Source of the DNA: an uncultured delta proteobacterium
Lineage (GTDB): Bacteria > Desulfobacterota > Binatia > DP-6
DNA: 64,000 nt
Direction of reading: 5' to 3'
Assembly: GCA_963815115.1 (NCBI GenBank)
Contig: CAWFFN010000007.1
Coordinates: forward strand, 160,001 to 224,000
Shown: one piece after another, positions 3,315-60,356 of the stretch
How positions within the stretch are numbered: the stretch's first letter is position 1
Layout of the letters: the number at the start of each line of letters is the position of its first letter
Program-made: the position numbers and the translations under genes
The notes under the pieces: model-generated
What the model was told of the DNA's origin: nothing
Databases searched by the model: none
What the model saw: the letters and a program-made list of their open reading frames with translations, nothing else

Positions 3315-3323
3315 GGAAGTCCG

Positions 3324-4277: not shown

Positions 4278-4289
4278 CCCCGTTTCTGC

Positions 4290-4320
4290 TCGCCCGCATT
4301 GACTCTATGCGTGCGGGCGA
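4290..4320 (+). terminator. stem-loop after the hom-thrC-apgM-glpX operon (possible terminator)
   Basis: TCGCCCGCA ... TGCGGGCGA 9-bp inverted repeat just after the glpX stop; no clear U-tract. Confidence 0.3.
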
Positions 4321-4347
4321 CTCTGCTCGCGCTCAGGGAGGTGTGAC

Positions 4348-4839
4348 ATGGCAGGAAAAGACGACTTCACGGCCGACGAGTGGTCGCTGCTGTGCCGGAG
4401 TCCGATGCTCGCAGGCCTGGTCGTCGTGGCGGCGAGTCCCAGCGGCCCCTTCGGCGTCATCAAGGAGATGATCGCCTTGGCGAAGCTGGTCGCCGAGACC
4501 AAGGCGAAGGGGGGCGGCGATGCGCTGGTGAGCGCACTGGTGGGCGAGATCACCACGCGCGAGGGCATCGAGCGCGCGAAGCCGACCGACGTCCAGGGCA
4601 TGTCGCCCGAGAAGGCGCGGAGCCATGGGCTCGAGCAGCTGAAGCAGGTCGCGGCACTGCTCCGTCAGAAGGCGCCGGGCGATGCGGCCGGGTTCTCGCA
4701 GTGGTTGCAGGAGGTCGCGCAGCGGGTGGCGAACGCGTCGAAGGAGGGCGGCTTCCTGGGCTTCGGCGGGACGCTGGTCAGCGAGCAGGAGCAGGCGGCG
4801 TTGCGCGACATCGCTGCGGCTCTCGGGCCGGTCTCCTAG
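4348..4839 (+). CDS. conserved-looking hypothetical protein
   Basis: GGAGG Shine-Dalgarno; coding-like codon use; C-terminal KEGGFLGFGG motif. Confidence 0.75.
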   Translation: MAGKDDFTADEWSLLCRSPMLAGLVVVAASPSGPFGVIKEMIALAKLVAETKAKGGGDALVSALVGEITTREGIERAKPTDVQGMSPEKARSHGLEQLKQVAALLRQKAPGDAAGFSQWLQEVAQRVANASKEGGFLGFGGTLVSEQEQAALRDIAAALGPVS

Positions 4840-5672
4840 CGCCCGGCCCGGTGGCGGTGGCCGCGCTGCGCACCCGAGCCCCTCGGGCGCGCGCCGCCGC
4901 GCGGCCTCGCCTTCCCGGTCGCTCGCCGGCGCACGGGAGGCGGAACGTAGGTGGCACGCTTCAGGATGGAGAAGTAGCGCTTCAGGTACGGGACGCCGGT
5001 GTCGGCGGCCGTCTGCGCTTCCCGCGATCCCCCGATCGACGCGAAGACGGAGCGCACGCCGTGGTAGTGATACGCGTAGAGGAGGCGATAGAGGTACTCC
5101 GTCCGCTGCACCTCGTCGGGCACGCCCTGGAGCAGCCGGCGCGCGTCGCCGAGTCGGACCAGGTCGAGCTTGGTGAGATGTCGCACACCCGCCCAGGCAT
5201 TCACGTACGGGTCGAAGCAGCGGTCACGCGTGTCGGCGTACGACTGCCAGGTGCCCTCGACGAACTGAAAGATGCCGCACGCGGTCGAGGCGGGGTTCTC
5301 GGAGAACGGATTGAACCCCGACTCCACCCGCGCGATCGCCAGGATCATTGCGCTCAGGTCGATCGGCGGACGTGCCTTGGACAGGGCGTCCACGACCGCG
5401 CGCACGGCGAGGTCCTGATCGTCGGGCGCCGCCCGACCCCAGCGCTTCCACTGCAGCGGATCGGGCGGCAGGTCGGCCGTGACGCGGCCAGCCTGGGTGA
5501 TGTCGTGCAGGAGATCGTCCGAGACGTTGTCGGGAAAGCGCAGGACGGGCGGGGGCGCAGGCGCGGCGGGCTTCCGCTTGGCGGCGGAGGCGCTGCCCGC
5601 GGCGAAGGCGACGGACAGCAGGACGACGACGGAGGCTCGCCAGAGCCGGGTGGTCGCGCGCGACGTCGGCAT
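4836..5672 (-). CDS. secreted SLT-domain lytic transglycosylase-like protein
   Basis: signal peptide; AIARVESGFNP (catalytic Glu) and ACGIFQF motifs; start estimated at ATG 5672. Confidence 0.75.
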   Translation of the reverse strand: MPTSRATTRLWRASVVVLLSVAFAAGSASAAKRKPAAPAPPPVLRFPDNVSDDLLHDITQAGRVTADLPPDPLQWKRWGRAAPDDQDLAVRAVVDALSKARPPIDLSAMILAIARVESGFNPFSENPASTACGIFQFVEGTWQSYADTRDRCFDPYVNAWAGVRHLTKLDLVRLGDARRLLQGVPDEVQRTEYLYRLLYAYHYHGVRSVFASIGGSREAQTAADTGVPYLKRYFSILKRATYVPPPVRRRATGKARPRGGARPRGSGAQRGHRHRAGR

Positions 5673-5767
5673 GCACGGGGCCGGTCCGGAGGACCGTCCC
5701 GCAGGCGATAGCAGACCGCCTCCTCGGCGCCAAGCCAAACTTCGTGACGCGGCGCGCGAGCCGACTA

Positions 5768-6862
5768 TCAGCCGACTGCGTGCTGCGCCCGATTCGAGCG
5801 TGGCGGCAACGCACCGGCTCCAGGCGGCGCCGTCGCCGCCTCGTAGCCCGTCCAGCAGCCGAGCGTGAAGTCGTAGAGCTTGCAGCGACGGGTCGCCGCC
5901 AGCCATGCGCGCAGGCGCAATGGCCGGACGGCCATCGCGCCGCCGCTCTCGCGCGCCAGCACCGCGGTGGCAAGCGGCAGATGGTAGAAGGGAATGCGCG
6001 GGTCCAGGTGGTGCGCCGTGTGCAGGAAGATGTTGTGCCAGAAGACGTTCAGCCAGCCGGGAATCACGTGGCTCGTCGCGCCGTCCAGCGGGGCGACGCT
6101 GCCGCGGCCGTCGGTGCGCGGCTGCCAGGCTGCTTCGGGGCCGATGTGGTGGATGTGCACCGTCGCGCCGATCAGCCAGTTCCACGCCAGCCACGGCGCG
6201 ACCAGCACCTTGGCCCAGATCCAGAGCGCGCCGCCGGCACTGCCGGTCCGCGTCCACCCCACCCACAGGAGCGCAGCCGTGGCGAGCACGAGGTACGTCC
6301 ACACGCGGCGGCGATCCCGGCGGAAGGCACGCCGCAGCCGTGGCGGCGGCTCGATGCGCATCATGCGTTGCCACCACATGACGCGCAGATAGTAGAGTCC
6401 CGCGCCCCACGCGGACCACTCGACGCGATGGAGCAGCCTGCCGAGCCGTCCCAGCCGGGCGTACTGCGAGGGCGTCAGCGGATGCCACACGAAGTCGATG
6501 CCAGCGCGCCCCGCGTGCCCGTGGTGTACGCGGTTGTGGCCGAGCACCCACACCTCGTAGGCGTGCAGGCTCGGCAGGAGCGCCAGCTGGGCCGTCCAGT
6601 AGGCGAGGGGGCGGCTCCGGAAGAGCGCGCCGTGGGCGGCGTCGTGCCCCAGCACGAAGAGCGCGCCGATCGCCAGCCCGCCGGCGAGCCAGAGGAGGGG
6701 CAGCAGGGCGGGCTGGTCGACGGCGAGGAGCAGGGCGGTGACGCCGGCGAACATCGCCAGGTCGCGCGTCAGGTAGGCGAGGCCGCGCCACGCGGGGTTG
6801 GCGTAGCAGGCGGGCGGCAATGTGCCGATGAGCGCCTTCACGTCGCGGGACGACGCTACCAT
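5768..6862 (-). CDS. membrane fatty acid desaturase (delta-12/omega-6-like)
   Basis: His boxes GHDAAH, HNRVHH, HTAHH; GGAGGT SD before ATG 6862; frame stays open upstream. Confidence 0.9.
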   Translation of the reverse strand: MVASSRDVKALIGTLPPACYANPAWRGLAYLTRDLAMFAGVTALLLAVDQPALLPLLWLAGGLAIGALFVLGHDAAHGALFRSRPLAYWTAQLALLPSLHAYEVWVLGHNRVHHGHAGRAGIDFVWHPLTPSQYARLGRLGRLLHRVEWSAWGAGLYYLRVMWWQRMMRIEPPPRLRRAFRRDRRRVWTYLVLATAALLWVGWTRTGSAGGALWIWAKVLVAPWLAWNWLIGATVHIHHIGPEAAWQPRTDGRGSVAPLDGATSHVIPGWLNVFWHNIFLHTAHHLDPRIPFYHLPLATAVLARESGGAMAVRPLRLRAWLAATRRCKLYDFTLGCWTGYEAATAPPGAGALPPRSNRAQHAVG

Positions 6863-6912
6863 GCGTGGCACCTCCGGCTCGCGGCCGTCGAGCAGCGCCG
6901 TGATGTGCGCCA

Positions 6913-7596
6913 TCAGGCCGTCGGCCTGTGCCTGCAACTCGTCGCGGCCGGTCGCGCCGGCGGTGGTGGTAGCGGCCGGCCGAACGCGACCGTCACCCGG
7001 CCGGGGCGGGGCAGGCGCTGCCAGCGCGGGAAGGCCTCGAAGGCGCCGCGGATGGCGACGGGCACGATCGGTGCCTGCGCCGCGGCCGCGATGTGCACGA
7101 TGCCCGGCTGCGCGTGCTGCGGGCGGCCGGTGCGGGAGATGCGGCCCTCGGGGAAGACGATCAGCGGCTCGCCGCCTGCGAGCACGGCACAGGCCAGACG
7201 GATCGCGCGCGGATCGGGGCGGCCCGTCCGTACCGGCACGGCGCCGTTGAAGCGCATCCAGGTGCCGAGCTGCGGATGGTCCCAGTAGGTGCGATCGACC
7301 AGGAAGCGCACCTGCCAGGGCAGGAAGTAGGAGATGAACGCCCAGTCGAGCATGGAGACGTGGTTGGAGGCGATCACGAACGGGCCGTACGGTGGCACGT
7401 GGGCGTGGCCTTCGCCGCGCATGCCGAAGTAGACGCGAAACAGCGGACGCAAGATCCAGCGCAGGGCGTGATGGATGGCCGGCGTCCGTGGCGGCACGAC
7501 GACCCGCCGGCGCGTGCGGAGCGACGACCGACGCGGTCCGGAGGGCGTGTCTGCCGCAGGCTCGCACGGGACGGGCCGCACGGCCGGCGTTACCAT
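6913..7596 (-). CDS. 1-acyl-sn-glycerol-3-phosphate acyltransferase (PlsC family), apparent frameshift near the 3' end
   Basis: NHVSMLD (HX4D), IVFPEGRIS, PIVPVAI motifs; ATG overlaps the cyclase stop. Confidence 0.85.
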   Translation of the reverse strand: MVTPAVRPVPCEPAADTPSGPRRSSLRTRRRVVVPPRTPAIHHALRWILRPLFRVYFGMRGEGHAHVPPYGPFVIASNHVSMLDWAFISYFLPWQVRFLVDRTYWDHPQLGTWMRFNGAVPVRTGRPDPRAIRLACAVLAGGEPLIVFPEGRISRTGRPQHAQPGIVHIAAAAQAPIVPVAIRGAFEAFPRWQRLPRPGRVTVAFGRPLPPPPARPAATSCRHRPTA

Positions 7597-10500
7597 GGCG
7601 TCCCGCTCGCCCGCAACGTTTCCGGTTCCGGCGTAGCGTGGAACGTGCGTTGCCGCGTGTGCTCGGCCTCGCGCTCGAGGCCCAGGGCGCCGAACATCTC
7701 GAGCGACCGCGCCAGGCAGGCCGCGCCGTTCAGTCCAAGCAGCCGCGTGCCGCCGTCCGCCAGGCTCCCGCCGGCGACGGCCCAGGTCCGCGCCACCTCG
7801 GGCCGTGCCCCCATCTGCGCGCCCACGGTGAGCGCGCGCTCCCAGGCGCGGAGCGCCCGCGCGGGTCGTCCGAGCAGCCACCAGATGCGGCCCGCCAGCT
7901 GGTGGATCTCGGTGCGCTGGATCGAGACCTTGGCCGCGATGCGGAGCGCGTAGCGGATGCTGCCGCGCGCGTGCCAGCCGAGGAGGGCCGTCGAGCCGCC
8001 GCCGGCGACCGCCTCCTCGAGCAGCGCCACCTGGTGGCGGAGCCGAGCCGCGGCATAGGCGCTCAGGTGCCAGGGCGGCACTTCGATCGTGCGGCTGGTG
8101 ATCCGCTCCGCCGCCGCCAGGCTGCGTTCGGCTGCCCCGCGCCGGCCGAGCAGGAGCTGCGCCTTGGCGTAGGTGCCGAGCCCGAGCACGCGCAGCGCGT
8201 CTTCGTGGCGCATCGCGGTGTAGTCCTCGGCGGCGGCGCTGGCCTCGGCCAGCCGACGCTCTTCCAGCAGCAGCAAGGACGTCATGCCGTCGTGGTTCGC
8301 GCCCGCGAAGGCGTAGCCGTAGCTGTCGTTCATGTCGTCGAGCTGGCCGAGCAGCGCGCGCGCCCCCGCGAAGTCGCCCTGTCGCAGCCGCCGATCGCAG
8401 TAGAGGCCGAGGTACGTGTTCACGTCCCACAGCTGGCCGCAGCGCAGCGCCTCCTCCACCAGCCCCTCGTCGATCACGGAGCCATCCCCCCAGTCGCCGA
8501 GAAGGTACTGATGGATGAAGCTCATCGAGGCGCAGGTGAAGACGTCACGCACGTTGCCCGGGCGAATCAGACCCTTTGCGATGGCGAGCGCCCGCCGGCT
8601 CACCGCGAACGACAGGCCCGAGTAGCAGAACATGGTGGCGAACGAGGCGTACATGGCGCTCGCCTGGTCGATCTGCCGCATGTCGAGGCGGTTGAAGCGC
8701 CGGAAGGCCCCGACCAGGTCGATGAGGAGCCTGGTGGGGTCGCTGGTGATCTCGGCCCGGCCCCGGTTGAAGTAGATGTCGCTGATCTGCCGCTCGCGCG
8801 GCCAGTCGGTCACCTCGCGCCGGCGCCCCGTGCGGACGTAGAGCTGGCCCAGCACGCCCAGGAGATCGACCGCGAAGCGGACGTAGCCGCCGAGACGGCT
8901 CCGCGGCACGTGCTCGCCGAGCAGGCTCAGCGCCGCGTCGAAGTGCTCGATCGCCTCCGTCAGGTCGCCCTTGTTGAGCAACGCCAGGCCGATGCTCTGC
9001 TCCAGCACCGCCTTCTTCCGGGGATCGCCGCCGTCGCGATGGAGCTGGAGGTAGAGCCGCGAGGCATCGCGGAAGAAGGTCAGCGCCTCGTTCGACGCCG
9101 CCGAGCGCGTGGCCTCCTCGCCGGCCTGGAAGAGATACTGCTCGGCCTTCTCGAGCTCCTCGGCGCGGCTGTAGTGGTACGCCAGCATGCCGTAGAAATC
9201 GCTCAGCCGGTCCGCGTAGATGCTCTCGATGGCCCGGGCCACGCGCCGGTGCAGTGCCTGCCGCGTTTTCTGCAGGATCGCCTCGTAGATCGTCTCCTGC
9301 ACGAGGGCATGGGTGAAGACGTACCCGCGCTCCGGGAAGAGCAGTCGGCGGCGGACGGCACCGGTGCGGCGGGTCCGGCGGGCGCGGATCAGCTGGCGGC
9401 GAATCAGGTCGTCGAGGATGCCGTCGAGGTTCTGCTCGTCGCCCAGGATATCGGCAATGAGCTGGTGCTGGAACGAGCGGCCGATCGCGGCCGCCACCTG
9501 CAACACGCGCCGCGTGGGCTCGTCGAGGCGATCGACGCGGCTCATCACGACCTCCTGCACCGTGCCGGGGATGACCGCGGCCTGCAGCCTGTCGGTCAAC
9601 CGCACCTGGCCGTCCTCGTAGGTCACCGCGCCGTCCTCGATGAGCGAGCGGATCACCTCCTCGATGTAGAACGGATTGCCCTCTGCCCGCCCGACGATCA
9701 GCTCGCGCGTCGCGTACGGCAGGTCGGGCGTGCCGAGCAGGTTCTGGATGAGCGCGTAGCACTGTGGTGCGGTGAGATGGCCGAGGCGGATCTCGGTGTA
9801 GAGGGCCGCATGCTCGGTCCGGGCCGTCGCCAGGATGCGATCCGAGGTCTCCGGCGCCTCCGGGCGTGCGAGCACCACGAAGAGGAGAGGGTACCGGCCC
9901 GCCAGCCGCAGCAGGGCTTCGAGGAGCTCGATCGACGACTGATCCGCCCAGTGCAGATCCTCGAAGACCAGCACCGTGGGACGCACGTCCGTCAGACGCC
10001 GGAGCACGTGCCGGACGTGCTTCAGGATCAGCTCGACCATGGCCTCGCCTTCGCCGCCGCGTACGGGCGCGGCGTGCTCGCCGGTCGGCCGCATGCCCAT
10101 CATCATGGCGACGAACGGGAACACCTCGTCGCGCTCGGCCTCCGGCATGATGCCGGCCAGGGCGGCGAGGAGCTTCATCTCGGCGGCTGCCTCGTCGTCG
10201 TCGACGATGCCCGCCCAGCGCTGCAGGAGATCGACGAAGGGATGGAAGCTGAGGCCGTGGCCGACGGAGAAGGCGCGTCCCTCGAGGACCGTCACGTGAC
10301 GCGCGGGCTCCAGTCGCAGCAGCTCGGCGAGGAGCCGCGACTTGCCGAGCCCGGCCTCGCCCACGATGCCGACGATGCCGCCGCTCCCGTCGGCCAGGCG
10401 ACGCACGCAGTCCGCGAGCGTCGCCAGCTCCGCCTCGCGCCCGATCACCGCCGACGCGATGGACCATGTCGCTGCGGCGCTCGTGCGGGGCGTGCGGTGG

Positions 10501-48694: not shown

Positions 48695-49042
48695 TCAGCC
48701 CCCGCGGCGCTCGGTCGGCGGCGGCGGTGGTGGAGGCGGCGGTGGCGGTGGAGGTGGCGGCGGCGGTGCGGCTTCGCGAATCGGATCGCAGATCACGTGG
48801 CCCAGGAGCGCGCCGAGTCCAGCTCCGACGATCGTGCTGCCGATGATGCCGCCGGCCCGCGCGCCGTCCGATGGGTCGCCGTTGTTGTTCAGCACCACTC
48901 CGGTGGTGATGCCGCCGGCGGCACCGCCGAGGATGGCGCCGCCCACGGCGCACGATCCCCACTCACGATCGGCGAAGTTCGCGCATCCCGAGAGCGTCAG
49001 GACAGCCACCAGCCCCCCAACAACAGCGTGCGGTCTCCGCAT
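48695..49042 (-). CDS. glycine-zipper lipoprotein with a 17-Pro tail
   Basis: lipobox LSGC; GAILGGAAGG / GAGLGALLG; 17 consecutive Pro codons at 48716-48766. Confidence 0.75.
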   Translation of the reverse strand: MRRPHAVVGGLVAVLTLSGCANFADREWGSCAVGGAILGGAAGGITTGVVLNNNGDPSDGARAGGIIGSTIVGAGLGALLGHVICDPIREAAPPPPPPPPPPPPPPPPPTERRGG

Positions 49043-49168
49043 GGTCCCCTCCTCAGGTGTCGTCCGGTCGTGGGCGCAGTAACGGGAACGAGGCGTGCGG
49101 TAACCGAAAGGGTCCTGGGAGTCAAGGCGTATGAAGCACGCAGCCGCAGTCCAGGTGTCGTTCGTATC

Positions 49169-49197
49169 TTGACACGACGGCGGAGCCTCAATTTAAT
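49169..49197 (+). promoter_or_regulatory. sigma70-type promoter TTGACA-N17-TTTAAT
   Basis: near-consensus, upstream of GGAGG and ATG 49221. Confidence 0.6.
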
Positions 49198-49220
49198 CCC
49201 GCGCCACGGGAGGTTGGCAC

Positions 49221-49952
49221 ATGCGGACTCGGGTGCGGACGGTGACGCTCGCGCTCCTCCTCGCCTGCTGCGCGTGTGGCGGCAACCCGGCAGACGTCGA
49301 GGACATCAAGAAGGGGCAGAAGGAGATCCTCGACCGCCTCACCGCGCTCGAGAAGTCGGTGCAGCAGGTGAAGCAGGCAGCGCCCGCTCCCGCCCCGGCT
49401 CGCCCGCAGGTCGATCCGGCGAAGGTCTACAACATCCCGCTGGCGAGCTCCCCTGCGCGCGGCCCGAGCGACGCCAAGGTGACGGTCGTCGAGTTTGCCG
49501 ACTACCAGTGTCCGTTCTGTGGCCAGGCCGAAGGTCTGGTGAAGGAGGTACTCGAGACGTACCCCAAGGACGTTCGTCTGGTCTACAAGCAGTTTCCGCT
49601 GCCTTCGATCCATCCGCAGGCGATGGCCGCGGCGAAGGCGGCACTCGCCGCCGGCCGGCAGGGAAAGTTCTGGGAGATGCATGACCTGCTCTTCCAGAAT
49701 CAGCGCGACTTGAGCCCCGAGAAGCTCACCGAGCTGGCCGAGTCCTTGCATCTCGACGTCATGCAGTTCCAGAAGGACCTGGAATCGCCGGAGGTGCTCG
49801 CGCAGATCTCTCGCGAGCAGCAGGAAGGCAAGAGCGTCGACGTCATCGGCACGCCGACGATCTTCGTGAACGGCCGGCGGCTGATGAACCGCTCGCTCGA
49901 CGGCTTCCGGCAGATGATCGACGGCTCCCTCGGGCGACAAACGACGGGGTGA
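49221..49952 (+). CDS. DsbA-family thioredoxin-fold lipoprotein
   Basis: EFADYQCPFC, GKFWEMHD, GTPT; N-terminal lipoprotein signal and coiled coil. Confidence 0.9.
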   Translation: MRTRVRTVTLALLLACCACGGNPADVEDIKKGQKEILDRLTALEKSVQQVKQAAPAPAPARPQVDPAKVYNIPLASSPARGPSDAKVTVVEFADYQCPFCGQAEGLVKEVLETYPKDVRLVYKQFPLPSIHPQAMAAAKAALAAGRQGKFWEMHDLLFQNQRDLSPEKLTELAESLHLDVMQFQKDLESPEVLAQISREQQEGKSVDVIGTPTIFVNGRRLMNRSLDGFRQMIDGSLGRQTTG

Positions 49953-50526
49953 GTCGCCGCGCCGTCCAGGAAGTTTGTCAGCGCCTGGCTACGGTGGCGA
50001 ACCGCCCGGACTTCCAGTGGAACTTCGTGGGTCGACGACGACCAGCGGGTGAATGCGTTCTGTCTTCCCGGCGGCAAGGCGGCGGTCTACACGGGCATCC
50101 CGCCGGTCGCACAGGATCAAGCAGCTCGCCGTCGTGCTCGGCGACGAGACCGCACGCGCGTCGCGCGCCAGAGCACGTTGGCACAAACTCGGCGGCGCGG
50201 CTCTCGCCATCGGACTCGGCAGCAGCGCAGGCGCGTCCGCTATCGGCCTGTAGCCCTATGGTCGCATGCGGGAGCCGGGGCGGATCACATCGGCCTGCTG
50301 CTCATGGCGCAGGCAGGATACGATCCGCGTGCCGAAATTGACTTCTGGCAGCGCATGGAGGAGACGAGGCGGCGATGCGCCACCGGAAGTTCTCTCCACG
50401 CATCCGAGCCGCGGCACGCGCACGGTGCAGCTTCGCGCGTGGATCCCTGAAGCGATGCGGCTTTACGAGGCCGCCGCGCCCGCTCCCACCGCGCCGCTCG
50501 CGCGCGGCGGCGACGTGAAGCGCTGA
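49949..50526 (+). pseudogene. M48 (HtpX/Oma1-like) metallopeptidase remnant
   Basis: fragments in different frames: FQW, NAFCLPGGK, LAVVLGDETA (degraded HExxH), ADHIGLLLMAQAGYDP, LSTHPS. Confidence 0.85.
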
Positions 50527-50819
50527 TCACGGACGCGCGCCGCGGAAATCTTCGCGTGCCGGAAAATTTTTTTCCCGAAGATGCGCGCGATGTTACGGCG
50601 TCGCGACAAGATCGCGACGATCTCCCACCTTGCAATACTCGCTGAACCGCGCTAAACGCAGACCCTCCCGCGACATATTGCTTTCTTGAACATGACGGAG
50701 GTTAAGGGTTGGATGCGGTCGCTCCCGGGATGGGAGCGGCGGTGTGGCGGGTGGGTGTCGGAGGCGGCCGCAGTCGTGAACGGCTTGTCCCGCGGGGTGT
50801 TCTGCGACTTCTCCCCACG

Positions 50820-50828
50820 TGTGGATAA
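50820..50828 (-). promoter_or_regulatory. perfect DnaA box (TTATCCACA)
   Basis: TGTGGATAA on the + strand, about 60 nt before the dnaA ATG. Confidence 0.75.
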
Positions 50829-50887
50829 CGCCGCGCGGGGCATCTCGAAGGAACCGATCGGGGATCGGTGCAACGAGGGGTCGGTGG

Positions 50888-52210
50888 ATGCTCGACGCCG
50901 TGTGGGGGGAGATGCGACGGCAGCTCCGTGCTTGCCTGTTCGCGAAGGACTTCGATACCTGGATCGCCCCCCTGCGGGCGACCTGCTTCGAGGCCGGGGA
51001 GCTCACCATTGAAGTTCCGAGCGCCTTCAGCCTCGAGTGGATTCGGGAGCACTATCTGGACGCACTGACACAGGCGACCGAAGGCGCTGCTGGGCACGGA
51101 ACGCGCCTGAGATTCGTCGTGAACCGGGCGCTCGAGGCCGGACCGCCGCCTCGACGACCGCTGCGGCGAGCCGAGGCGCTTCCGGTCGAGAGCACTCCGT
51201 CACCGGCACCGCGCTGCACGTTCGAGAGCTTCGTCGTCGGGCGGAGCAACGAGGTGGCGTGGCGGGGTGCACGCGCCGTGGTCGATGAACCGGGCAAGCG
51301 CTTCAACCCGCTGTTCATCTACGGCGGCACCGGACTCGGCAAGACTCATCTGCTCAACGCGACGGCCCATGCGATGCACCAGCGGCGCACGCTCTCGGGC
51401 GTCGCGTGCCTGACCGCCGAGTCCTTCGTGAACGAGATGATCGCCGCTCTCAGACGCCATCAGATGGATCAGTTCCGTCAGCGCTTCCGGGGCATCGGCA
51501 CGCTGATCCTCGACGACATCCAGTTCCTCGCCGACAAGAAGCGGTCGCAGGAGGAGTTCACGCACACCTTCAACGCGTTGCACGACGGCCGGAAGCAGAT
51601 CGTGATCGCCTCGGACCGGGCGCCGCACGAGCTGCCGGGCTTCGAGGACACGCTGCGGAGCCGCCTGGCAGCCGGCCTCCTGGCCGACATCCAGCCGCCC
51701 GATCCCGAGCTGCGATTGGCCCTCGTGCGTCGCAAGGCGGCCGAGGCCGGCCTCGAGCTGGACGACGAGGTGGCGAGCCACCTTGCCGAGCACTGGTGCC
51801 GCAACGGGCGTGAGCTCGAAGGGGTCCTGAAGCGCATCGAAGCATTCGCCACGCACGCGCAGCGGCCCGTGACGCTCACCCTGGTGCGCGAGGCGCTGGC
51901 GCCATACCGGCGTCCCGACGACGCGCGCAAATCGCTTGCCCGCATCGTCGGGGAGGTCTGCCGCCAGTATCAGGTGACTCGCGCCGAGCTGGCGTCCTCC
52001 CGTCGGACGGCACGTGTCGTGCTTCCCCGACACGTCGCGATGTATCTCTGCCGCCGGCACACCGACGCGCCGCTCGGCGTGATCGGCAAGGAGCTGGGCG
52101 GCCGAGACCATTCCACGGTGGTGCACGCCCTGGGCGCCATCGAGGAGCGGCTTCGTACCGATGCGGAGCTGCGAGCCGTCGTGTCCACGCTGGAGGCACG
52201 ACTCGCCTAG
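50888..52210 (+). CDS. dnaA: chromosomal replication initiator DnaA (possibly a paralog)
   Basis: domain I FDTWI, NPLFIYGGTGLGKTHL, LDDIQF, RELEG, domain IV GGRDHSTV. Confidence 0.9.
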   Translation: MLDAVWGEMRRQLRACLFAKDFDTWIAPLRATCFEAGELTIEVPSAFSLEWIREHYLDALTQATEGAAGHGTRLRFVVNRALEAGPPPRRPLRRAEALPVESTPSPAPRCTFESFVVGRSNEVAWRGARAVVDEPGKRFNPLFIYGGTGLGKTHLLNATAHAMHQRRTLSGVACLTAESFVNEMIAALRRHQMDQFRQRFRGIGTLILDDIQFLADKKRSQEEFTHTFNALHDGRKQIVIASDRAPHELPGFEDTLRSRLAAGLLADIQPPDPELRLALVRRKAAEAGLELDDEVASHLAEHWCRNGRELEGVLKRIEAFATHAQRPVTLTLVREALAPYRRPDDARKSLARIVGEVCRQYQVTRAELASSRRTARVVLPRHVAMYLCRRHTDAPLGVIGKELGGRDHSTVVHALGAIEERLRTDAELRAVVSTLEARLA

Positions 52211-52287
52211 CCGGGGTGGTGGGGTAGAGGAGGCGCGCCAGGGATGGCGCCGCGAGGTGCCCGCGGCACGATGAGTGCCGCGGGCAC

Positions 52288-53061
52288 CTACGCGCACGCC
52301 GCTGGGACACCCGCGTGCCGGAGGGCACGAAGCAGGTCGTCACGGTATCGGACCTGATCGAACGAGATCTCGCCGACCTCGTCCGGGTCGAGCGACTCGG
52401 CCACCAGGACCTCGAACGGTGCCGTGAGCAGGCGGACGTGGACGAGATGATCGCCGCTGTCGACCAGGCGGAACACCGCCGGCGGTAGCGCGTCGGGCGC
52501 GAACCGCAGGCTGACCGGGTCCCCCGCCGGCCGCTGGTCGAGGAGCGGCACCGCCGGGAGCCCCGTAGCCATTCCCCGTGCCAGGGCGTCGCTCTCCGCC
52601 TCGATGCCGTCGTGTCGGAGCCGCGCGATCTCGCCGGCGACGTCTGCCGGCGGCCGCGGCCGATTGCGTCGTAGCCACGGGATGGCGTGGAAGAGCGGTG
52701 GCGGAGCGGGCACGAGCTCGAGTCCCTCGAACAGATCGGGCAGCAGCGCGGCGAGCGTGGCATGGTCGCCTGCGCCGTGCGCGGCGGTCGCGGCCCGAAA
52801 GGCGGGCGAATCCCGCAGCTCCCGCAGGCGCGTCCGGAAGCGCTCGACCAGCAGGCTGCCCTCCTGCAGCAGCGGTCCGGTCGCGTCCGCCAGGAGGTGC
52901 TCGCGATGCAGACGGCGTGCCCGGTCGCCCAGGGCGAGGGCGTCCGCCCGCAGCGTCGCGAGGTCGCCACGGCTCCCGGCGCGAAACTTCTCGAGCTCGA
53001 CCAGCAGTCCGCCCGCCTCGGCGACCGCCTGCTCCAGCGCATCGGCAGCCCCGTCGTCCAT
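52288..53061 (-). CDS. hypothetical protein
   Basis: 257-aa ORF with coding-like GC3 filling the gap; divergent from the 53109 operon. Confidence 0.7.
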   Translation of the reverse strand: MDDGAADALEQAVAEAGGLLVELEKFRAGSRGDLATLRADALALGDRARRLHREHLLADATGPLLQEGSLLVERFRTRLRELRDSPAFRAATAAHGAGDHATLAALLPDLFEGLELVPAPPPLFHAIPWLRRNRPRPPADVAGEIARLRHDGIEAESDALARGMATGLPAVPLLDQRPAGDPVSLRFAPDALPPAVFRLVDSGDHLVHVRLLTAPFEVLVAESLDPDEVGEISFDQVRYRDDLLRALRHAGVPAACA

Positions 53062-53108
53062 GATCCGGCTTCTTACAACCGGGCGCGGCCTTTGCTAAGA
53101 AGGGGGCG

Positions 53109-53720
53109 ATGCCCCTCCGGTCGCGGACTCGGAGAGCGCGCCGCGCGACCATCCGCGAGGTGCTCGACATCGCCATCGAGCTCGAGAAGAAGACGATGGC
53201 GCTGTACGTCGCCTTCGTCCAGGGCTTCCCGCGGCCCGAGGAAGTGCGCAACTTCTGGTTCTCGATGGCGCGTCACGAGGCGGGGCACTGCGGCGCGCTC
53301 GCCCTGGTCGAGAGCATCGTGGAATCCGATCCGAGCCGCGCGGCGGCGGCACGGGTGTGGTTCGACGAGCATACCGTGGCACGGCTGCGGGCGCTCCTCA
53401 CCGCCTATCTGCGCGAGGTGCGGAGCGGCAGCGTGTCGCTCGAGCGGGCCTTCGAGATGGCCATCGACGTCGAGGGATCGGAGCTCGAGGACGTCGTGGT
53501 CGACATGCTGAGCGTGGTGCGAAGCCCGCGGTGGCGCGAGCGCGCCATCCAGCTCCTGCTCCACGACCTGGGTGATCTCTCCTACATGGTCGAGCGCTAC
53601 ACCAAGAACGAGGGGTTGCTGACACGGGCCGACGCGCTCCTCGAGCGCCACCTGGGAGGCCTCAAGCGGCGCCGGTCAGCGACGGCGCGGGCCGCCGGGG
53701 GGCCGCGGGCGGCGGGGTAG
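53109..53720 (+). CDS. ferritin-like (rubrerythrin-fold) protein
   Basis: AIELEKK..ALY, HEAGH, AIDVE pattern. Confidence 0.7.
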   Translation: MPLRSRTRRARRATIREVLDIAIELEKKTMALYVAFVQGFPRPEEVRNFWFSMARHEAGHCGALALVESIVESDPSRAAAARVWFDEHTVARLRALLTAYLREVRSGSVSLERAFEMAIDVEGSELEDVVVDMLSVVRSPRWRERAIQLLLHDLGDLSYMVERYTKNEGLLTRADALLERHLGGLKRRRSATARAAGGPRAAG

Positions 53721-53722
53721 CG

Positions 53723-54118
53723 ATGGCCGGGGCCACGACCACGCGCCGGAACGGCCGCTCCGAGGGCGGGGCGTTCGTCACCGTGCCGATCTACCTCGAG
53801 GCGGTCGGGCGCTTGCATGGCGTGGGGCCGGGTGAGATGGCCCGCGCGTTGCGCGTCAGCCCCTCGGTCTTGCGGCGCTGGGCGCGCGGCACGCTGGTGC
53901 CATCGTGGCGGCGGCTCCGCGTGATGACCGACCTGTGGGGCGGCAGCGCGGAGCTTCTCGCCCTGGGCGCAGCGTTGCAGCGCTACTCGCGCTCCACCGG
54001 CATCTCCATCGAGGACGCGGTGCGGATGGTTCGCAGCGGCCGCCGCAACGCCCCGGAGCGCCGCACGGCCGGGCGGCGCCGCGACCGCCGGCAGCTTTCG
54101 CTGCCCATCGGAGGCTGA
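53723..54118 (+). CDS. XRE-like helix-turn-helix protein
   Basis: GEMARALRVSPSVLRRWARGTLVPS. Confidence 0.7.
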   Translation: MAGATTTRRNGRSEGGAFVTVPIYLEAVGRLHGVGPGEMARALRVSPSVLRRWARGTLVPSWRRLRVMTDLWGGSAELLALGAALQRYSRSTGISIEDAVRMVRSGRRNAPERRTAGRRRDRRQLSLPIGG

Positions 54119-54121
54119 GAC

Positions 54122-54607
54122 GTGACGGGCGAGGGCATCGGTGAGGGCATCACGGAGCGCGGGCTGGCGGCGACCTCCCACGTCGAGACGGCCGAGGGTC
54201 CGGTGCGCATGTCGGAGACGCCCAACAAGGGCTTCGCCGTGCTGACGCGGCTGCCCTCGGGGCAGCTCGGCTTCCGCCAGCTGATCAAGCTCGTCTCGCG
54301 TGGTCCGGTGCCGCTGGTCCGGGTCGTCCTGAGCACGGGGCACGAGGTCCTGGCGGCACGCGGACATCCCTTCTATCGCGCCGGAATGGAGGCCGTCGCC
54401 GCGGAGCGGCTCATGCCCGGCGATCCCCTCGAGACCGCCTTCCGCTATCCCGAAGGCTACACGCCTCCGGACCTGCCGGATGCCGAGTCGAGCGCCCCGA
54501 TCCGTGTCGTGCGGGTGGAAGCGGCGGGGGAGGGCGAGGTGATGACGGGCACGGTGCGGGACACGCATGCGCTCTTCATCACGGCTGGCGTCCTCTGTGG
54601 CGAGTGA
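54122..54607 (+). CDS. free-standing Hint (intein-like) domain protein lacking splicing residues
   Basis: block A GLAATSHVETAEG, block B GHEVLAARGHPFY, LMPGD, blocks [25 protein letters not shown]. Confidence 0.75.
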   Translation: MTGEGIGEGITERGLAATSHVETAEGPVRMSETPNKGFAVLTRLPSGQLGFRQLIKLVSRGPVPLVRVVLSTGHEVLAARGHPFYRAGMEAVAAERLMPGDPLETAFRYPEGYTPPDLPDAESSAPIRVVRVEAAGEGEVMTGTVRDTHALFITAGVLCGE

Positions 54608-55313
54608 CGGGCTGGCGCGCCTCGAGGCCCGCCTCGTCCGCTGCCGGCGCTGCCCGCGGCTGGTCGCCTACCGCCAGCGCGTCGCGACGGAGCGCGTCGC
54701 GCGCTTCCGAAGCTGGCACTACTGGGGGCGGCCCGTCCCGGGGTTCGGCGATCCGGCGGCCCGCGTCCTGGTCGTCGGCCTTGCGCCCGCGGCGCACGGT
54801 GGCAACCGGACGGGCCGCATCTTCACGGGCGACGAGAGCGGCAACTGGCTCTTCGCTGGACTGCATCGCGCCGGGTTCGCGAATCAGCCGGCCTCCGTGC
54901 ATCGGGACGACGGGCTGGCGCTGCGCGGCGCCTGGGTGACGGCGGCGGCGCGCTGCGCGCCGCCAGCCAACCGGCCGACGCCGCAGGAGCTCGAGACCTG
55001 CCGGAGCTGGCTGCTCGCCGAGCTGGCGCTCCTGGAACGCCTGCGGGTCGTCGTCGTGCTTGGCCGCGTCGCGCACGACGCCTTCCTGGCGGCGGAGGCC
55101 GCCCGCGGCCGGATGGTGCCACGCCCGCGGCCGGCGTTCGCGCATGGAGCGGAGCATCGGCTGCCGTCGGGACTCGTGCTGCTCTGCTCCTACCACCCGA
55201 GCCAGCAGAACACCTTCACCGGCAGGTTGACGCGGCCGATGCTCGACCGCGTGCTCGGACGGGCGGCCGCGCTCGCCGAGGCGCGAGTTCCTCGTCCGGC
55301 CGAAGGGTGGTAA
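54597..55313 (+). CDS. family 5 uracil-DNA glycosylase (UdgB-like)
   Basis: [32 protein letters not shown]. Confidence 0.92.
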
Positions 55314-55329
55314 CGAGGGCCCGCGGCGC

Positions 55330-56205
55330 ATGAAGGGGATCATCCTTGCCGGCGGAGCAGGCACGCGGTTGCATCCGCTCACCCTCGCGGTGAGCAAGCA
55401 GCTCCTGCCGGTCTACGACAAGCCGATGATCTACTATCCGTTGTCGTCGCTCATGCTCGCGGGCATCCGCGACATCCTGGTCATCACGACGCCGCACGAG
55501 CAGGAGCCTTTCCGGCGGCTCCTGGGTGACGGCGCCCCGCTCGGTCTCTCCATCAGCTATGCCGTCCAGCCGCGGCCCGAGGGGCTCGCCCAGGCCTTCG
55601 TCGTCGGACGGCAGTTCATCGACGGCGGCTCGGTCGCCCTCGCGCTCGGCGACAACATCTTCTACGGACACGGGTTCCCGGAGAGCCTGCGGCGCGCCGC
55701 CACGCGCACGCGCGGCGCAACCGTGTTCGCCTATCACGTCCGCGATCCGGAGCGGTACGGCGTGGTCGAGTTCGACGCGGCCGGACAGGCGGTCTCGCTG
55801 GAGGAGAAACCCGCGCTGCCGCGTTCGTCGTACGCGGTGACCGGGCTCTATTTCTACGACGCCCGCATCACCGACATCGCCGCCGGTCTGCGGCCGTCAG
55901 CCCGGGGCGAGCTGGAGATCACCGACGTGAATCTGCACTATCTGCGCCTCGGCGACCTCCAGGTCGAGAAGCTCGGCCGCGGCGTCGCGTGGCTGGACAC
56001 CGGAACGCACGAAGCGCTGGCCCAGGCCTCGAGCTTCATCCAGGTCATCGAGGAGCGGCAGGGCCTCAAGGTGGCCTGCCTCGAGGAGATCGCGCTGCGC
56101 ATGGCCTACATCGGGCCGGAGGAGGTGCGTCGCGCGGCCCACGGCATGCAGCAGACGGGCTACGGACAGTACCTGCTCCGGCTGCTCGAGCAGTGGCCGA
56201 CGTAG
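55330..56205 (+). CDS. rfbA: glucose-1-phosphate thymidylyltransferase
   Basis: [37 protein letters not shown]. Confidence 0.96.
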
Positions 56206-56501
56206 ACCTGGCACGGAATCGAGTGCCCGCTGGCGACCACCGTGACCGCGCGGCGCAGGTAGAGCCGCCCCTCGTCCTCGTACACGTCCAGGGCGTGCAG
56301 CGCGTCGGAATCGAGGTCGTCGAGGACGACGCCATCGACCGCGGCGCCAGGCGAGGGATGGATCACCGGATAGCCGTGCGTGCCGACGGCGCGGATCCAG
56401 CCGTGCAGCGTCGCCGCCCGGCGCGCGAATTGGCGACCCGTGACGCGCTCGACGGACGCCGGCTCCGTGAGCGTTCCGTAGACGAACAGACGCGTCGGTC
56501 C
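56160..56501 (-). CDS. gamma-glutamylcyclotransferase (AIG2-like) family protein, no canonical start codon visible
   Basis: [22 protein letters not shown] all in one frame; in-frame TGA at 56538-56540 upstream. Confidence 0.75.
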
Positions 56502-56508
56502 GCGCGGC

Positions 56509-57051
56509 TCAGGCCGCGTTGGGCTGATGGCCGCCGCTCAGGCTGCGCTCGCGCTGGACGAGCACGTGTACGCCGCGATTCGTGAGCCACCCGAAGGTCT
56601 CACGCACGCGGCGGAGCGCCAGCTCCTCCGCGGGAGCCGGCACCAGCACCTCGAGGCTGGCGCCCGGTCCGCTCCGCAGCACGTCGTCGGCGAGCGTCTC
56701 GGCGAGGTACGGCGTGAGAACGCCGGCGCGCTCGAGCACACCTTCGGTGCCGAGCGTCGGACGCCGGACGCGCACCACCACCGGGATCGGCGGAGCTTGC
56801 GTTTCGAGACGCGCTCGCGCGAGCACGAGCGTGGCTTCGACCAGGTCGCCGTAGGTCCGGACCGGTTCCAGCACATCCTCGGGGACGACGAGGTCGAGCT
56901 CTTCCTCGATGGCGAGCGCGAGCTCGGCGAAATCGAGCGAATCTGCAGCCAGATCCTCGACCAGGGACAGCTCAGGGGACAGGGAATCCTCGGTGACGCC
57001 GAGGTGTTCCGCAACCAGCCGCCGCACTCGCGGCTCCACAAGACTCCACAT
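56509..57051 (-). CDS. acyl carrier protein domain fused to an unknown C-terminal domain
   Basis: EDLAADSLD phosphopantetheine motif, EEELD, TYGDL; about 100 extra aa. Confidence 0.8.
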   Translation of the reverse strand: MWSLVEPRVRRLVAEHLGVTEDSLSPELSLVEDLAADSLDFAELALAIEEELDLVVPEDVLEPVRTYGDLVEATLVLARARLETQAPPIPVVVRVRRPTLGTEGVLERAGVLTPYLAETLADDVLRSGPGASLEVLVPAPAEELALRRVRETFGWLTNRGVHVLVQRERSLSGGHQPNAA

Positions 57052-57176
57052 ACTCACCTGCCGATCGAATTCGTTGCGTCGAAGGTTGACTCCTAGCATA
57101 CCTCGCGAGCTTCGACAGTACGCGGCGACGAGAATTCACCCGCCCGTAGCAACGCGCTGCGGCGTGCGGCGGTTGC

Positions 57177-57205
57177 TGGACGCTGCCACGGCGCTTCGGT
57201 ACCTT
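57177..57205 (+). promoter_or_regulatory. tRNA promoter TGGACG-N17-TACCTT
   Basis: spacing and position 10 nt before the tRNA. Confidence 0.45.
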
Positions 57206-57215
57206 CGGACGATAC

Positions 57216-57288
57216 GCCCTCGTAGCTCAGTGGATAGAGCACCTGCCTCCTAAGCAGGGGGTCGCAGGTTCGATTCCTGCCGGGGGCA
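57216..57288 (+). tRNA. tRNA-Arg (anticodon CCT), CCA not encoded
   Basis: acceptor GCCCTCG/CGGGGGC, D-arm GCTC/GAGC, anticodon stem CCTGC/GCAGG with loop CTCCTAA, GGTTCGATTCC T-arm. Confidence 0.96.
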
Positions 57289-57477
57289 TCGAGACTTCAA
57301 CGGCTCGCGCACGCACGCCGGCCCCGCAGCGGCGGATGGGCGACAATGTCACCACTTGCGCGCGGTGACACCGGCACCCCTCTCGCGCGTTGCGTTCGAG
57401 CACTCGTGGATCGGGCGCTCAGCCGGCGAGGAGCGACACAGGGCGGGGCACAACCTCGCCCTGTGCGATGCAGACGA

Positions 57478-57768
57478 TCAGAAGCGACGCGAGCCGTTCC
57501 GGCCGCCACCGCCACCGGACGAGCGTTCCTTCGCTTCGCTGACGTTCAGGGTGCGACCCTGGAGATCCGTGCCGTTGAACTGCGAGATCGCCTTCTGCGC
57601 CTCGCCCGACGAGCTCATCTCGACGAACCCGAAGCCGCGCGATTGTCCGGTCTCGCGGTCCGTGATGACCGCGGCCGACTCGCACGTGCCTGCCTGCGCG
57701 AACAGGGTCTCGAGATCCGAACTCCTGGTCTCGAACGACAGATTGCCGACGAACAGCTTCTTACCCAT
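57478..57768 (-). CDS. RRM RNA-binding protein with Gly-rich tail
   Basis: RNP2 LFVGNL, RNP1 RGFGFVEM; GGAGGA SD. Confidence 0.93.
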   Translation of the reverse strand: MGKKLFVGNLSFETRSSDLETLFAQAGTCESAAVITDRETGQSRGFGFVEMSSSGEAQKAISQFNGTDLQGRTLNVSEAKERSSGGGGGRNGSRRF

Positions 57769-58160
57769 TGCTCCTCCTGGGCCCCGCAGGGCCGGTTCGA
57801 CATCGACGCATCGTCTGGGCGGGAAGCCTGTCGTGGCAGAACGGATGGACGCTGATTCACGCACAAACAAGACGACGGTGGACGCATAGACCAATCCGAA
57901 GGCCAGCACAATGCGCCGCCCGCAGATCGCGCCGCATGGCAGAGGCGCCATGACCCAGCATCACCAGCGCCTGCCCAGCATAATCGTAAGACCGCAAGCA
58001 CGGCCCGCGGCGGCATCAGGTACGCGCCACGACGGGTGGACTCACATGCCATGTTCTCCGGGCGCCCGGATCGAAGGCAGAAGGCAAGCACGGCAGGCCA
58101 CGGTCACGACGGACGCCGTGAGCACGGTGCCGGTGTCCTCAACGGAAGGAGGATCCGAGG

Positions 58161-58802: not shown

Positions 58803-60062
58803 CTACGCCGTGTGTCCCTGATGGGAATCCTTCCGCAGGGACATGAGCTCCACTTCCAACGCGAGGGCGACTTGCTTGGCCAGCGATTCCAGGAGTGTCA
58901 TTTGCTCGCGGAGCAGAAAGCGTTCGGGCTCCCTGGGCCGCAAGGCCAGAATGCCGGCGGGGGTATCGCCCGCCTGCAGGGGGACGTAGAGAACCTCTGC
59001 CGTCGGTGAGCTCCCGGTACCCCATCCTGCCATCTGGCCACTCTCGTAGGCCGATCGCGCAAAGTGCATTTGTTCCACGAGGTCTTTTTGCATCACCGAC
59101 GACACGTCACCCGCAGCGACGTGCAGCGAGCGCTTCTCATCCGGCAGGAGCGCCAGGACCTCGCAATCGAAGATCTCCGAGATGTACTGTACCGCCACCT
59201 GTAGTATGCTCTCGACCCCCCTGGTGCTGGCGAGTTGCCGGCTGAGACCGTGCATCGCTGCCGCCTGCCGCTCCTGTAAACGGGCAAGCGTGATCTGCTG
59301 GCGCATCCCGGCGGCCAGGTGACTGATCACCAGAGCCACCAGACACATCACCACGAAGGTGACGATGTACTGGGCGTCCTCCACGGTGAACGAGAATCGG
59401 GGAGGTACAAAACAGAAATCAAAGGCCAGGACGCTCAGGAGAGACGATAGGATCGCCGGCCCACGCCCGCAGTCAGTGGCGGTGAGGATCACCCCCAGCA
59501 AGTACACCATGATGAGGTTGCTGAGGTGGAAGTACGGGTACATCGCAAAACAGATCGCGGTGGCCAGGGCGAGGTACAGGACACCCGTGCCATAGTCCGA
59601 CAGCTGGATCCTCTTGGATCGAAGGACGTAGGTCGCTTCTCTTTGTTCTCCCGGCTCGCCGGCAATGACGTAGACGTCGGCCGCTCGGCTGATTCGCACC
59701 AGTTGATCCACGGGGCTTCGTGCAAGGATGCCTCTGGCCGAAGAGCGGCCTGGCTTGCCAACGATGATCCGCGTGATGTTCCGTTGCCTTGCGAAGTTGA
59801 CGATTTCCTCGGCCACGTTGCGGCCGGGTAGGGTGACCGCCTCTCCCCCCGATTCGTCAGCCAACCTCAGATTGTCGGCGGCCTGGCTGCGCGCCGCCTC
59901 GGATAGCATCGCCATTCTGGGTTGCTCGACGTATACGGCGAACCATTTGGCATGGAGGCTGGCGGCCATCCTCTTGGCGGAGGTTATCAGCTGGGCCGAG
60001 GAGGAGCTCGGGCTCACGCACACCAAGAGCCTTTCTTCGGTGGGCTTTGGAATGTCCGCCAT
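58803..60062 (-). CDS. KdpD-like sensor fragment (Usp + DUF4118 TM + GAF) without histidine kinase
   Basis: ERLLVCVS, FARQRNITRIIVGK, MVYLLGV, AFDFCFVPPRFSF, QVALALE then stop; lower GC. Confidence 0.85.
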   Translation of the reverse strand: MADIPKPTEERLLVCVSPSSSSAQLITSAKRMAASLHAKWFAVYVEQPRMAMLSEAARSQAADNLRLADESGGEAVTLPGRNVAEEIVNFARQRNITRIIVGKPGRSSARGILARSPVDQLVRISRAADVYVIAGEPGEQREATYVLRSKRIQLSDYGTGVLYLALATAICFAMYPYFHLSNLIMVYLLGVILTATDCGRGPAILSSLLSVLAFDFCFVPPRFSFTVEDAQYIVTFVVMCLVALVISHLAAGMRQQITLARLQERQAAAMHGLSRQLASTRGVESILQVAVQYISEIFDCEVLALLPDEKRSLHVAAGDVSSVMQKDLVEQMHFARSAYESGQMAGWGTGSSPTAEVLYVPLQAGDTPAGILALRPREPERFLLREQMTLLESLAKQVALALEVELMSLRKDSHQGHTA

Positions 60063-60356
60063 CGTCACGCTCCCTCGGTCATGTGCCGATGTCCAGGTGT
60101 GATTGCGCCTCTACATCAGAGACGACGATCGTGAAACTGGCGCTTGGAGGATCAGGCGGCCGCGCCGCGAAGCTGTCATCGCCCGTCGGGGCCCGCGGTG
60201 CTGCCCGCGGCCAGCGAGGAGGTGTTGCGCTAGACGATCGCCGTCGCTAGCGATGAGCCGGGGAGTTCCACAACCCGTGGACGATGATCAGCGTCGAGCG
60301 GTTGCCCGTGGATGCCCAGGCCGCATGAAGCTGGACGTCCATTCGCGAGGTGCATC

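Follow-up and report, generated by a model that had tools for sequence, protein, structure and literature searches.

The gene at 54122..54607 of the window, by which we mean the whole 64,000-nucleotide stretch of an uncultured delta proteobacterium that was analysed, raises the question of how a protein that resembles a mini-intein from end to end came to be encoded on its own, and what it would do there. A sequence-only reading had taken the product for a free-standing, apparently catalytically dead Hint protein, domesticated for binding, metal sensing or scaffolding, or serving as a decoy for split inteins. Here we examine its fold, its family and its neighbours.

The Hint fold of the window protein

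The gene and its parts are given below.

54122..54607, +: gene of a free-standing, apparently splicing-dead Hint protein of 161 aa, from GTG at 54122 to TGA ending at 54607
54110..54114, +: GGAGG, Shine-Dalgarno-like, 7 nt 5' of the GTG, read from the sequence
54122..54160, +: 13-aa leader, of low confidence in the AlphaFold model, with Arg13 as its sole conserved residue
54161..54604, +: predicted Hint fold, from Gly14 (Cys1 position) to Glu161 (terminal Asn position), the range aligned by VIA-align on whole inteins
54215..54289, +: residues 32-56, of sequence ETPNKGFAV...GFRQLIK, with hardly any variation in subfamily A
54356..54367, +: block B by alignment, with Ala79 in place of Thr and His82 retained
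54446..54460, +: YPEGY motif, residues 109-113, conserved family-wide, directly after the N-terminal intein half
54539..54568, +: block F by alignment, VMTGTVRDTH, with Thr142 at F4 and the xGxVxxTH signature of reductase inteins
54596..54607, +: end of block G by alignment and VIA-align, with Cys159 (G5, gained by the family), Gly160, Glu161 and the stop

The ORF starts 3 nt past the stop of an upstream HTH gene, and its 3' end overlaps the downstream gene. Its GC content per codon position (0.74/0.52/0.88) resembles that of the neighbour genes, and no promoter or terminator consensus was found in 52900-56600. The 13-aa leader, the missing C-extein, the intact frame and the tight spacing to both neighbours, all pointed out earlier, were confirmed. 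A 12-nt duplication in the leader, at 54128-54151, gives GEGI twice; close relatives mostly have leaders of 6-9 aa as compared to 13 aa in the window protein. The protein, of ~17 kDa, has just one cysteine, residue 19 being Ser.

Pfam, NCBIfam and PDB sequences searched with the single window protein gave zero matches, and the Hint relationship was detectable only through profiles and folds. A profile of 118 close homologues gave weak matches, at E 0.005-0.015, to a RadA intein and a BIL domain, Intein_splicing of Pfam weakly matched 35 of the 118 close members (best E 0.0049), and PF14890 was precomputed on three subfamily B records. One NCBI record, P0053, already carries the name 'Hint domain-containing protein'. 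When the AlphaFold model (pLDDT 87.5) was searched with Foldseek, the listed matches were all Hint proteins, inteins at the top (best E 2e-8). VIA-align placed residues 14-161 of the model on residues 1-440 of the Mtu RecA intein (Z 19.5, rmsd 2.4, 134 aligned), and retrieved 32 Hint chains at Z>=8, the row after those dropping to 4.1. The model of a subfamily B protein (pLDDT 94.7) gave Z 20.9, rmsd 2.1 and 134 aligned residues, i.e. a whole Hint. Since residues 14-161 were aligned on entire inteins, the Cys1 position is taken by Gly14, that of the terminal Asn by Glu161, and G5 by Cys159. The model is thus that of a complete Hint beta fold, whole on one chain, as the earlier reading of this 161-aa ORF had expected, and not that of a split intein fragment, in which an N- or C-part is fused to an extein.

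The family, its lost residues and its kinship with reductase inteins

Among 801 candidates, 448 were homologues of the window protein; the best 120 of these 448 have 66-92% identity and are nearly all 150-161 aa long, free-standing members being mostly of 150-175 aa. A profile search without length restriction gave 241 hits, and the best 150 of these comprised 76 long proteins with inteins, 16 divergent full-length proteins, which were chosen by hand, and also fragments and frameshift artefacts. With the profile of the divergent set 247 proteins were hit, and subfamily B was defined from the best 120 of them. The divergent subfamilies, at ~30-45% identity, yet keep the full fold. The alignment held 256 sequences, and the 253 with both ends were the basis of all residue counts; in these the tail past G7 does not exceed 29 aa and the median leader is 6 aa. 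The best 150 of the 241 hits contained no natural fusion of the Hint protein, and a search of longer proteins returned a single hit, a gyrase B intein, which is weak evidence against fusions. Four records that might pass for fusions (P0122, P0137, P0156, P0161) were read by eye as frameshift artefacts.

A scan of GTDB genomes, with patterns that fit subfamily A only, matched 42 stretches, of which 19 loci were confirmed. By genome label 9 loci belong to Binatia/Binatus, 6 to Deltaproteobacteria and 4 to other phyla; these last are probably mislabelled, because the gene order is common to all. Binatota is also indicated by the source names of homologues and by the nearest Atlas cluster, in which the phylum is known for 4 of 77 members; the hosts appear to be uncultured. 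Against the window, dN/dS of the Hint gene was 0.13-0.34 in 18 of the 19 loci and 0.50 in the remaining one (L019), and that of the glycosylase gene 0.13-0.39; synonymous sites were near saturation, so these values are rough and probably high. Uncorrected pN/pS was 0.31 for residues 14-57, had a median of 0.41 for residues 14-140, which lie outside the overlap with the glycosylase gene, reached 0.71 in the loop and was lowest, 0.18, in the zone of the last 20 codons, where the glycosylase gene overlaps. The Hint gene is under purifying selection. Its pairwise distances track those of 9 neighbour genes (Spearman 0.35-0.69), and mostly vertical descent is compatible with the data. A lone decaying remnant among ordinary inteins had been named as the alternative to domestication; what was found instead is a conserved family of free-standing proteins.

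The residues of splicing are replaced throughout this family. Position 1 is Gly in 180 of the 253 members and Ala in 66, with Ser in 4, Cys in 1, Val in 1 and one gap. B7 is Ala/Gly in 238/253 and Thr in 7/253; B10 is Gln in 133 and His in 120, the window protein having His82 (AxxH). No member has Cys at F4, where the window protein has Thr142. At G7 we counted Ala 128, Glu 118, Asn 0 and Asp 2, both Asp being followed by Gly. The window protein ends in Glu161 and the stop, with neither a +1 residue nor a C-extein, and a position-1 nucleophile together with a terminal Asn/Gln/Asp occurred in 0/253 members. According to passages of PMC4031507 and PMC7664689, the intein classes and BIL types need Cys1/Ser1, Cys F4 or Cys+1, and C-terminal cleavage requires Asn/Gln/Asp. 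The window protein has none of the class 1 set, i.e. Cys1/Ser1, block-B TxxH, and terminal Asn/Gln/Asp with Cys/Ser/Thr at +1 and a C-extein. Class 2 (KlbA type) is defined by Ala1, Cys+1 and Asp F4 in passages of PMC4031507, and here the +1 residue is missing and F4 is Thr. As to class 3 with its WCT motif, Trp B12, Cys F4 and Thr G5 each occurred in 0/253. The Gly-Glu-stop end and the free-standing state set the protein apart from BIL type A, and Gly at position 1 and the median leader of 6 aa from BIL type B, Hedgehog, Vint and pre-toxin Hint domains. With the required nucleophiles and terminal residue missing, splicing is excluded on sequence. The family is very probably domesticated and splicing-dead, and the window protein would have no cleavage activity.

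The changes of Cys1 to Gly and of the block-B Thr to Ala with its His kept (Gly14, Ala79, His82) were thus read correctly before. Of two other proposed replacements only part stood. Thr142 does lie at F4, but the Asp that it was said to replace is mostly absent already from the parent inteins, the 22 nearest inteins having Asn in 11, Cys in 8 and Asp in 3; Glu161 does lie at the terminal Asn, but the penultimate His is present in only 3/22 of these inteins. What the family itself lost is Cys1, Thr B7 and Asn G7, together with the +1 nucleophile.

There are gains as well. In comparison to the parent inteins the family has acquired Glu22, Lys36, Arg43, YPxGY and Cys159. Cys159 (G5) is Cys in 239/253, where the parent reductase inteins have Val/Ser/Thr, and this near-invariance suggests chemistry. 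In subfamily A, among 120 members, Arg13 is conserved in 114, Gly14 in 118, His82 in 118, His149 in 120 and Cys159 in 119; Cys19 occurs in 85/120, and 29/120 have a single Cys. Subfamily B (e.g. P0144) has Cys-1 in 122/135, Cys150 in 101/135 and Cys159 in 121/135, its block-B His is changed to Gln in 131, and its members typically have 3-4 Cys. Cys-1 and Cys150 co-occur in subfamily B (Fisher p 0.0005, ignoring relatedness). A disulfide between Cys-1 and Cys159 was unsupported, with no covariation (p 1.0). Within residues 32-56, Lys36, Arg43, Phe51 and Arg52 are conserved in both subfamilies, and we infer that this stretch is a candidate binding surface.

Of the 76 long intein-bearing proteins, 23 carry the intein between NP and C[GS]E, and the two intein hosts tested were ribonucleotide reductases with a TSCPD domain. 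We take the hosts of these inteins to be class II reductases, in which the site Cys presumably has a role, and the NP-C site inteins P0164 and P0234 to be those labelled 'RIR1-b'. A tree was built of 70 rows, namely 28 free-standing proteins, 22 reductase-site inteins (P0224 was dropped as a near-copy) and 20 randomly chosen members of a set of 43 other clean inteins, the endonuclease middles having been cut out; all its inteins were found with the family's own profile, so the set is biased. The 28 free-standing rows formed one clade (100/100) with a stem of 0.93 changes per site, which grouped with 20/22 reductase inteins at 98/88 and had P0164+P0234 as sister at 90/86. An AU test on a quick tree did not reject the reductase inteins as a clade of their own (p 0.227), and the family may be sister to them or nested inside. 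Independently of the tree, the block-F signature was present in 16/23 reductase-site inteins vs 2/84 other inteins, and median profile scores were 79 bits for reductase-site inteins and 43 bits for others. A regex test for descent of YPxGY from an intein linker did not discriminate (3/23 vs 4/57); by eye, an N[QST]KGY stretch was seen in 8/23 reductase-site inteins. Since the family is one clade and its nearest relatives are active-looking ribonucleotide reductase inteins, it points to a single origin and is most likely a domesticated intein; the direction would be from intein to stand-alone protein. The domesticated, non-splicing Hint of the earlier reading is in this respect supported by sequence.

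Among the 22 reductase inteins (e.g. P0164, P0234, P0240), position 1 and F4 are both Cys in 8, and the penultimate His is missing from most of the 22; inteins such as these are an unusual lineage. P0127, P0130 and P0132 are divergent free-standing members with intermediate features and have His at B10. By eye P0130 has Cys at position 1, where the alignment has a gap. P0127 and P0132, which are basal in the free-standing clade with weak support, share Asp at G7 and a Pro at -1, the end of P0127 being Gly-Glu. As a lead from two sequences, the Pro at -1 and the Gly-Glu end of P0127 may be relics of both exteins. Reading the terminal CGE of the window protein as the reductase C-extein CGE minus three residues was dropped as the main register, because the structures set Glu161 on the terminal Asn and the CKA of subfamily B matches the VKN of inteins; by way of P0127, Gly-Glu as an extein relic is possible.

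Neighbourhood and the overlapping glycosylase gene

The genes around the Hint gene that bear on its role are listed below.

54567..55313, +: uracil-DNA glycosylase with an N-terminal CxxC, starting at ATG 54567 or GTG 54597, inside the Hint gene and in its +1 frame
53723..54118, +: HTH protein, probable operon partner, with the C-terminus RRQLSLP
53109..53720, +: probably a ferritin/rubrerythrin-like protein, on a Pfam match of E 0.11 only; the probable operon begins with it
50819..52210, +: DnaA-family gene, a conserved neighbourhood marker, with a DnaA box at its start

The glycosylase, which we take to be family-5-like, lies downstream of the Hint gene in 19/19 loci, all of subfamily A. The HTH and ferritin-like genes lie upstream in all 18 loci with room for them, the dnaA-like gene is nearby in 16/19, and each locus examined has one Hint copy. 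In 18/18 loci by eye, and in 15/18 by a stricter regex, the C-terminus of the HTH protein reads RRQLx[LF]P, and we assume that an end of the RRQLSLP type resembles a sliding-clamp-binding motif. A start codon in the +1 frame was present within the last 20 Hint codons in 19/20 loci as compared to 33/104 control bins, other Hint bins having such starts in 1-9 of 20; the loci are related, and this enrichment is no formal test. In 19/20 loci the glycosylase is read in the +1 frame relative to Hint, so the GTG of GAGTGA is out of frame, and the glycosylase start wanders from -59 to +10 nt across the Hint-glycosylase junctions. A programmed frameshift joining Hint to glycosylase was considered and rejected, there being no slippery site in common and the +1-frame starts being enriched. 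Embedded starts are the simpler reading because of that enrichment, although one locus, L015, does not fit. There, no ATG/GTG/TTG occurs across 120 open codons before the CxxC, and the glycosylase gene looks intact. An insertion in L015 parts the Hint gene from the HTH gene, and the Hint-glycosylase link persists; by eye, the 5.6-kb insertion (2350-7960) has ORFs resembling a dltB/A/C/D cluster. P0161, a record of the divergent clade, seems by eye to continue into another downstream gene, and the glycosylase link may be local.

The remainder of the window, in which 30 ORFs were scanned, is ordinary metabolism. The perfect DnaA box at 50820-50828 overlaps the start of the dnaA-like gene, is exact in 6/19 loci and is the sole box with <=1 mismatch in the window. 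No dnaN was seen adjoining the dnaA-like gene, which may be a second dnaA. Between this gene and the ferritin-like gene, 52288-53061 (-) encodes a syntenic, faster evolving protein of 257 aa (dN/dS 0.28-0.75), for which Pfam, NCBIfam, PADLOC and PHROG gave no match. On the other side, 56509-57099 (-) encodes an acyl-carrier domain with an unknown C-terminal half and is near the locus in most related genomes, and a tRNA at 57216-57288 was the sole Rfam match in 49000-58000. Past the tRNA, 58803-60068 (-) encodes a KdpD-like piece (Usp, DUF4118, GAF) in which no kinase domain was found; it is absent from 19/19 related loci.

Proposed role and comparison with known systems

We hold with moderate confidence that the locus is best explained as a whole by a domesticated reductase intein working as a non-catalytic binding or regulatory module. 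An intein in a ribonucleotide reductase gene, at the site just before the NPCGE cysteine, would have left its host gene once, shedding both exteins and the splicing residues to become a small cytoplasmic stand-alone protein, and would have been passed on mostly vertically within Candidatus Binatia. The rigid Hint fold may then offer a conserved basic/aromatic surface (Lys36, Arg43, Phe51, Arg52, YPxGY) to a partner, the pocket Cys159 being structural or tuning partner binding; these basic and aromatic residues could themselves be structural rather than on the surface. In subfamily A the protein's partners would most likely be encoded in a DNA replication/repair operon, with the uracil-DNA glycosylase as the foremost candidate; this role is suggested because the glycosylase start is embedded in the Hint gene and the end of the HTH protein is clamp-binding-like. 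Granted that the family is domesticated and splicing-dead, we consider a non-catalytic binder probable. For splicing, 'non-catalytic' as used in the earlier reading holds, the residues being lost, but it needs the caveat that Cys159 was gained, near-invariant, at G5, which is a class 3 triad position, together with the block-B His.

The cysteine could be put to use in more than one way. If the protein sensed redox state or metal through a thiol, Cys159 would bind Zn or oxidise reversibly with help from His82 and a second cysteine, and the switch would control binding to a partner, e.g. the Fe-S glycosylase or the ferritin-like neighbour. The conservation of Cys159, the 3-4 Cys of subfamily B with co-occurring Cys-1 and Cys150, the Cys19 of most subfamily A members, and the redox-conditional splicing with active-site disulfides known in inteins from passages of PMC5874633 all fit such a sensor; the single Cys of the window protein (Ser19), shared with the 29 subfamily A members noted above, a second Cys that differs by subfamily and the missing covariation of Cys-1 with Cys159 do not, and we regard the sensor as rather unlikely. 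A repurposed enzyme, in which a Cys159-His82 dyad would clip the leader at Arg13-Gly14 or act in trans as a hydrolase or acyl carrier, appears less likely still. Its dyad occupies two of the three positions of the class 3 triad, which in passages of PMC7664689 is Cys124-His65-Thr143 of MchDnaB1: VIA-align placed model residues 14-161 on MchDnaB1 1-145, with His82 at His65 and Cys159 at Thr143. Subfamily A conserves Arg13, Gly14, His82, His149 and Cys159, and Hedgehog offers the precedent of a C-terminal Cys as nucleophile in passages of PMC12054796. However, that Cys depends on Cys1 and aligns at or past Glu161, at least 2 residues after 159; F4 is never Cys, Thr B7 is lost, the short and variable leader leaves little to release, and Gln at B10 in 133/253 argues against a family-wide acid-base role. 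Both ideas meet in a doubtful joint reading, to which we give about the same weight as to the sensor, that the Hint fold was rebuilt as a new pocket in which Cys159 with His82 (or Gln) is a reactive thiol acting in trans, whether as an enzyme or by switching the translationally coupled Fe-S uracil-DNA glycosylase in response to redox state or metal. If true, an intein would have been made into a reusable catalyst or sensor without any exteins.

An anti-phage decoy, which would swap strands with split-intein halves or with precursors carrying inteins, trap them and so block their splicing, fits poorly and seems very unlikely to us. The whole fold is kept, and inteins of phage terminases and reductases are related to the protein, weakly in sequence (E 1e-2 to 2e-4) and also in fold; phage genomes gave only weak intein matches. 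But the gene is syntenic and keeps its position in a housekeeping region, each locus examined having a single copy, it has no PADLOC or PHROG match, its strong conservation is unlike that of an arms-race gene, and a complete single-chain Hint would offer no open groove for a split half. That the frame has no function of its own, as a relic kept for the glycosylase start or a decaying intein, is highly improbable. The glycosylase start does lie in the zone of lowest pN/pS, but residues 14-57, distant from the overlap, are also constrained and nearly invariant in 120 homologues, and subfamilies at ~30-45% identity keep the full fold, so this reading is largely refuted.

In the open-access literature, so far as its passages go, we found no free-standing, splicing-dead Hint family and nothing pairing Binatota with an intein; mention in a large structure or family survey is possible. 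Being small and expressible, the protein offers a concrete way to ask if a Hint fold can do anything other than autoprocessing. The path from parasite to host gene is traceable, with P0127, P0130 and P0132 keeping intermediate features.

By profile score and tree, the nearest relatives are the class 1 inteins of the NP/C...N/CGE site in reductases, which share with the family the GP, VLT, GxLxF/YR, GTVxxTH/G and GVL features. These inteins keep Cys1, TxxH, the terminal Asn and Cys+1 within the reductase, whereas the family is without Cys1, Thr B7, Asn and exteins. Class 3 inteins such as MchDnaB1 (Z 19.0 to 6riy) resemble the family in having no position-1 nucleophile, a block-B His and a polar G5; their nucleophile is Cys F4, with Trp B12 and Thr G5, where the window protein has Thr F4, Phe B12 and Cys G5, and unlike them it lacks the Asn and the +1 residue. 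BIL domains A and B are likewise small Hint domains (Z 18.5 to 2lwy), which according to passages of PMC4031507 cleave rather than splice and have no +1 nucleophile. They sit, however, in larger variable proteins and still cleave, type A ending in His-Asn, whereas the family is free-standing and lacks Cys1. The Hint/Hog domains of Hedgehog and the Vint domains, which align at Z 17.8 (1at0) and 10.4 (8r2c), serve the host without intein-type splicing; Hedgehog requires Cys1 and TxxH for processing the flanking domain in passages of PMC12054796, and the window protein has neither a flanking domain nor Cys1. The Pho RadA mini-intein is, in passages of PMC8987985, a mobile element recruited like the family for a host role in DNA metabolism, and the main text of that review, in the passages available, treats inteins only as conditional splicing switches. 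In the passages cited here, Hint families cut or join their own host protein, and exapted inteins such as Pho RadA still splice within it. In contrast, the present family appears to have gone a step further, its intein having left the host gene and lost its chemistry, and having been kept by selection across a bacterial class.
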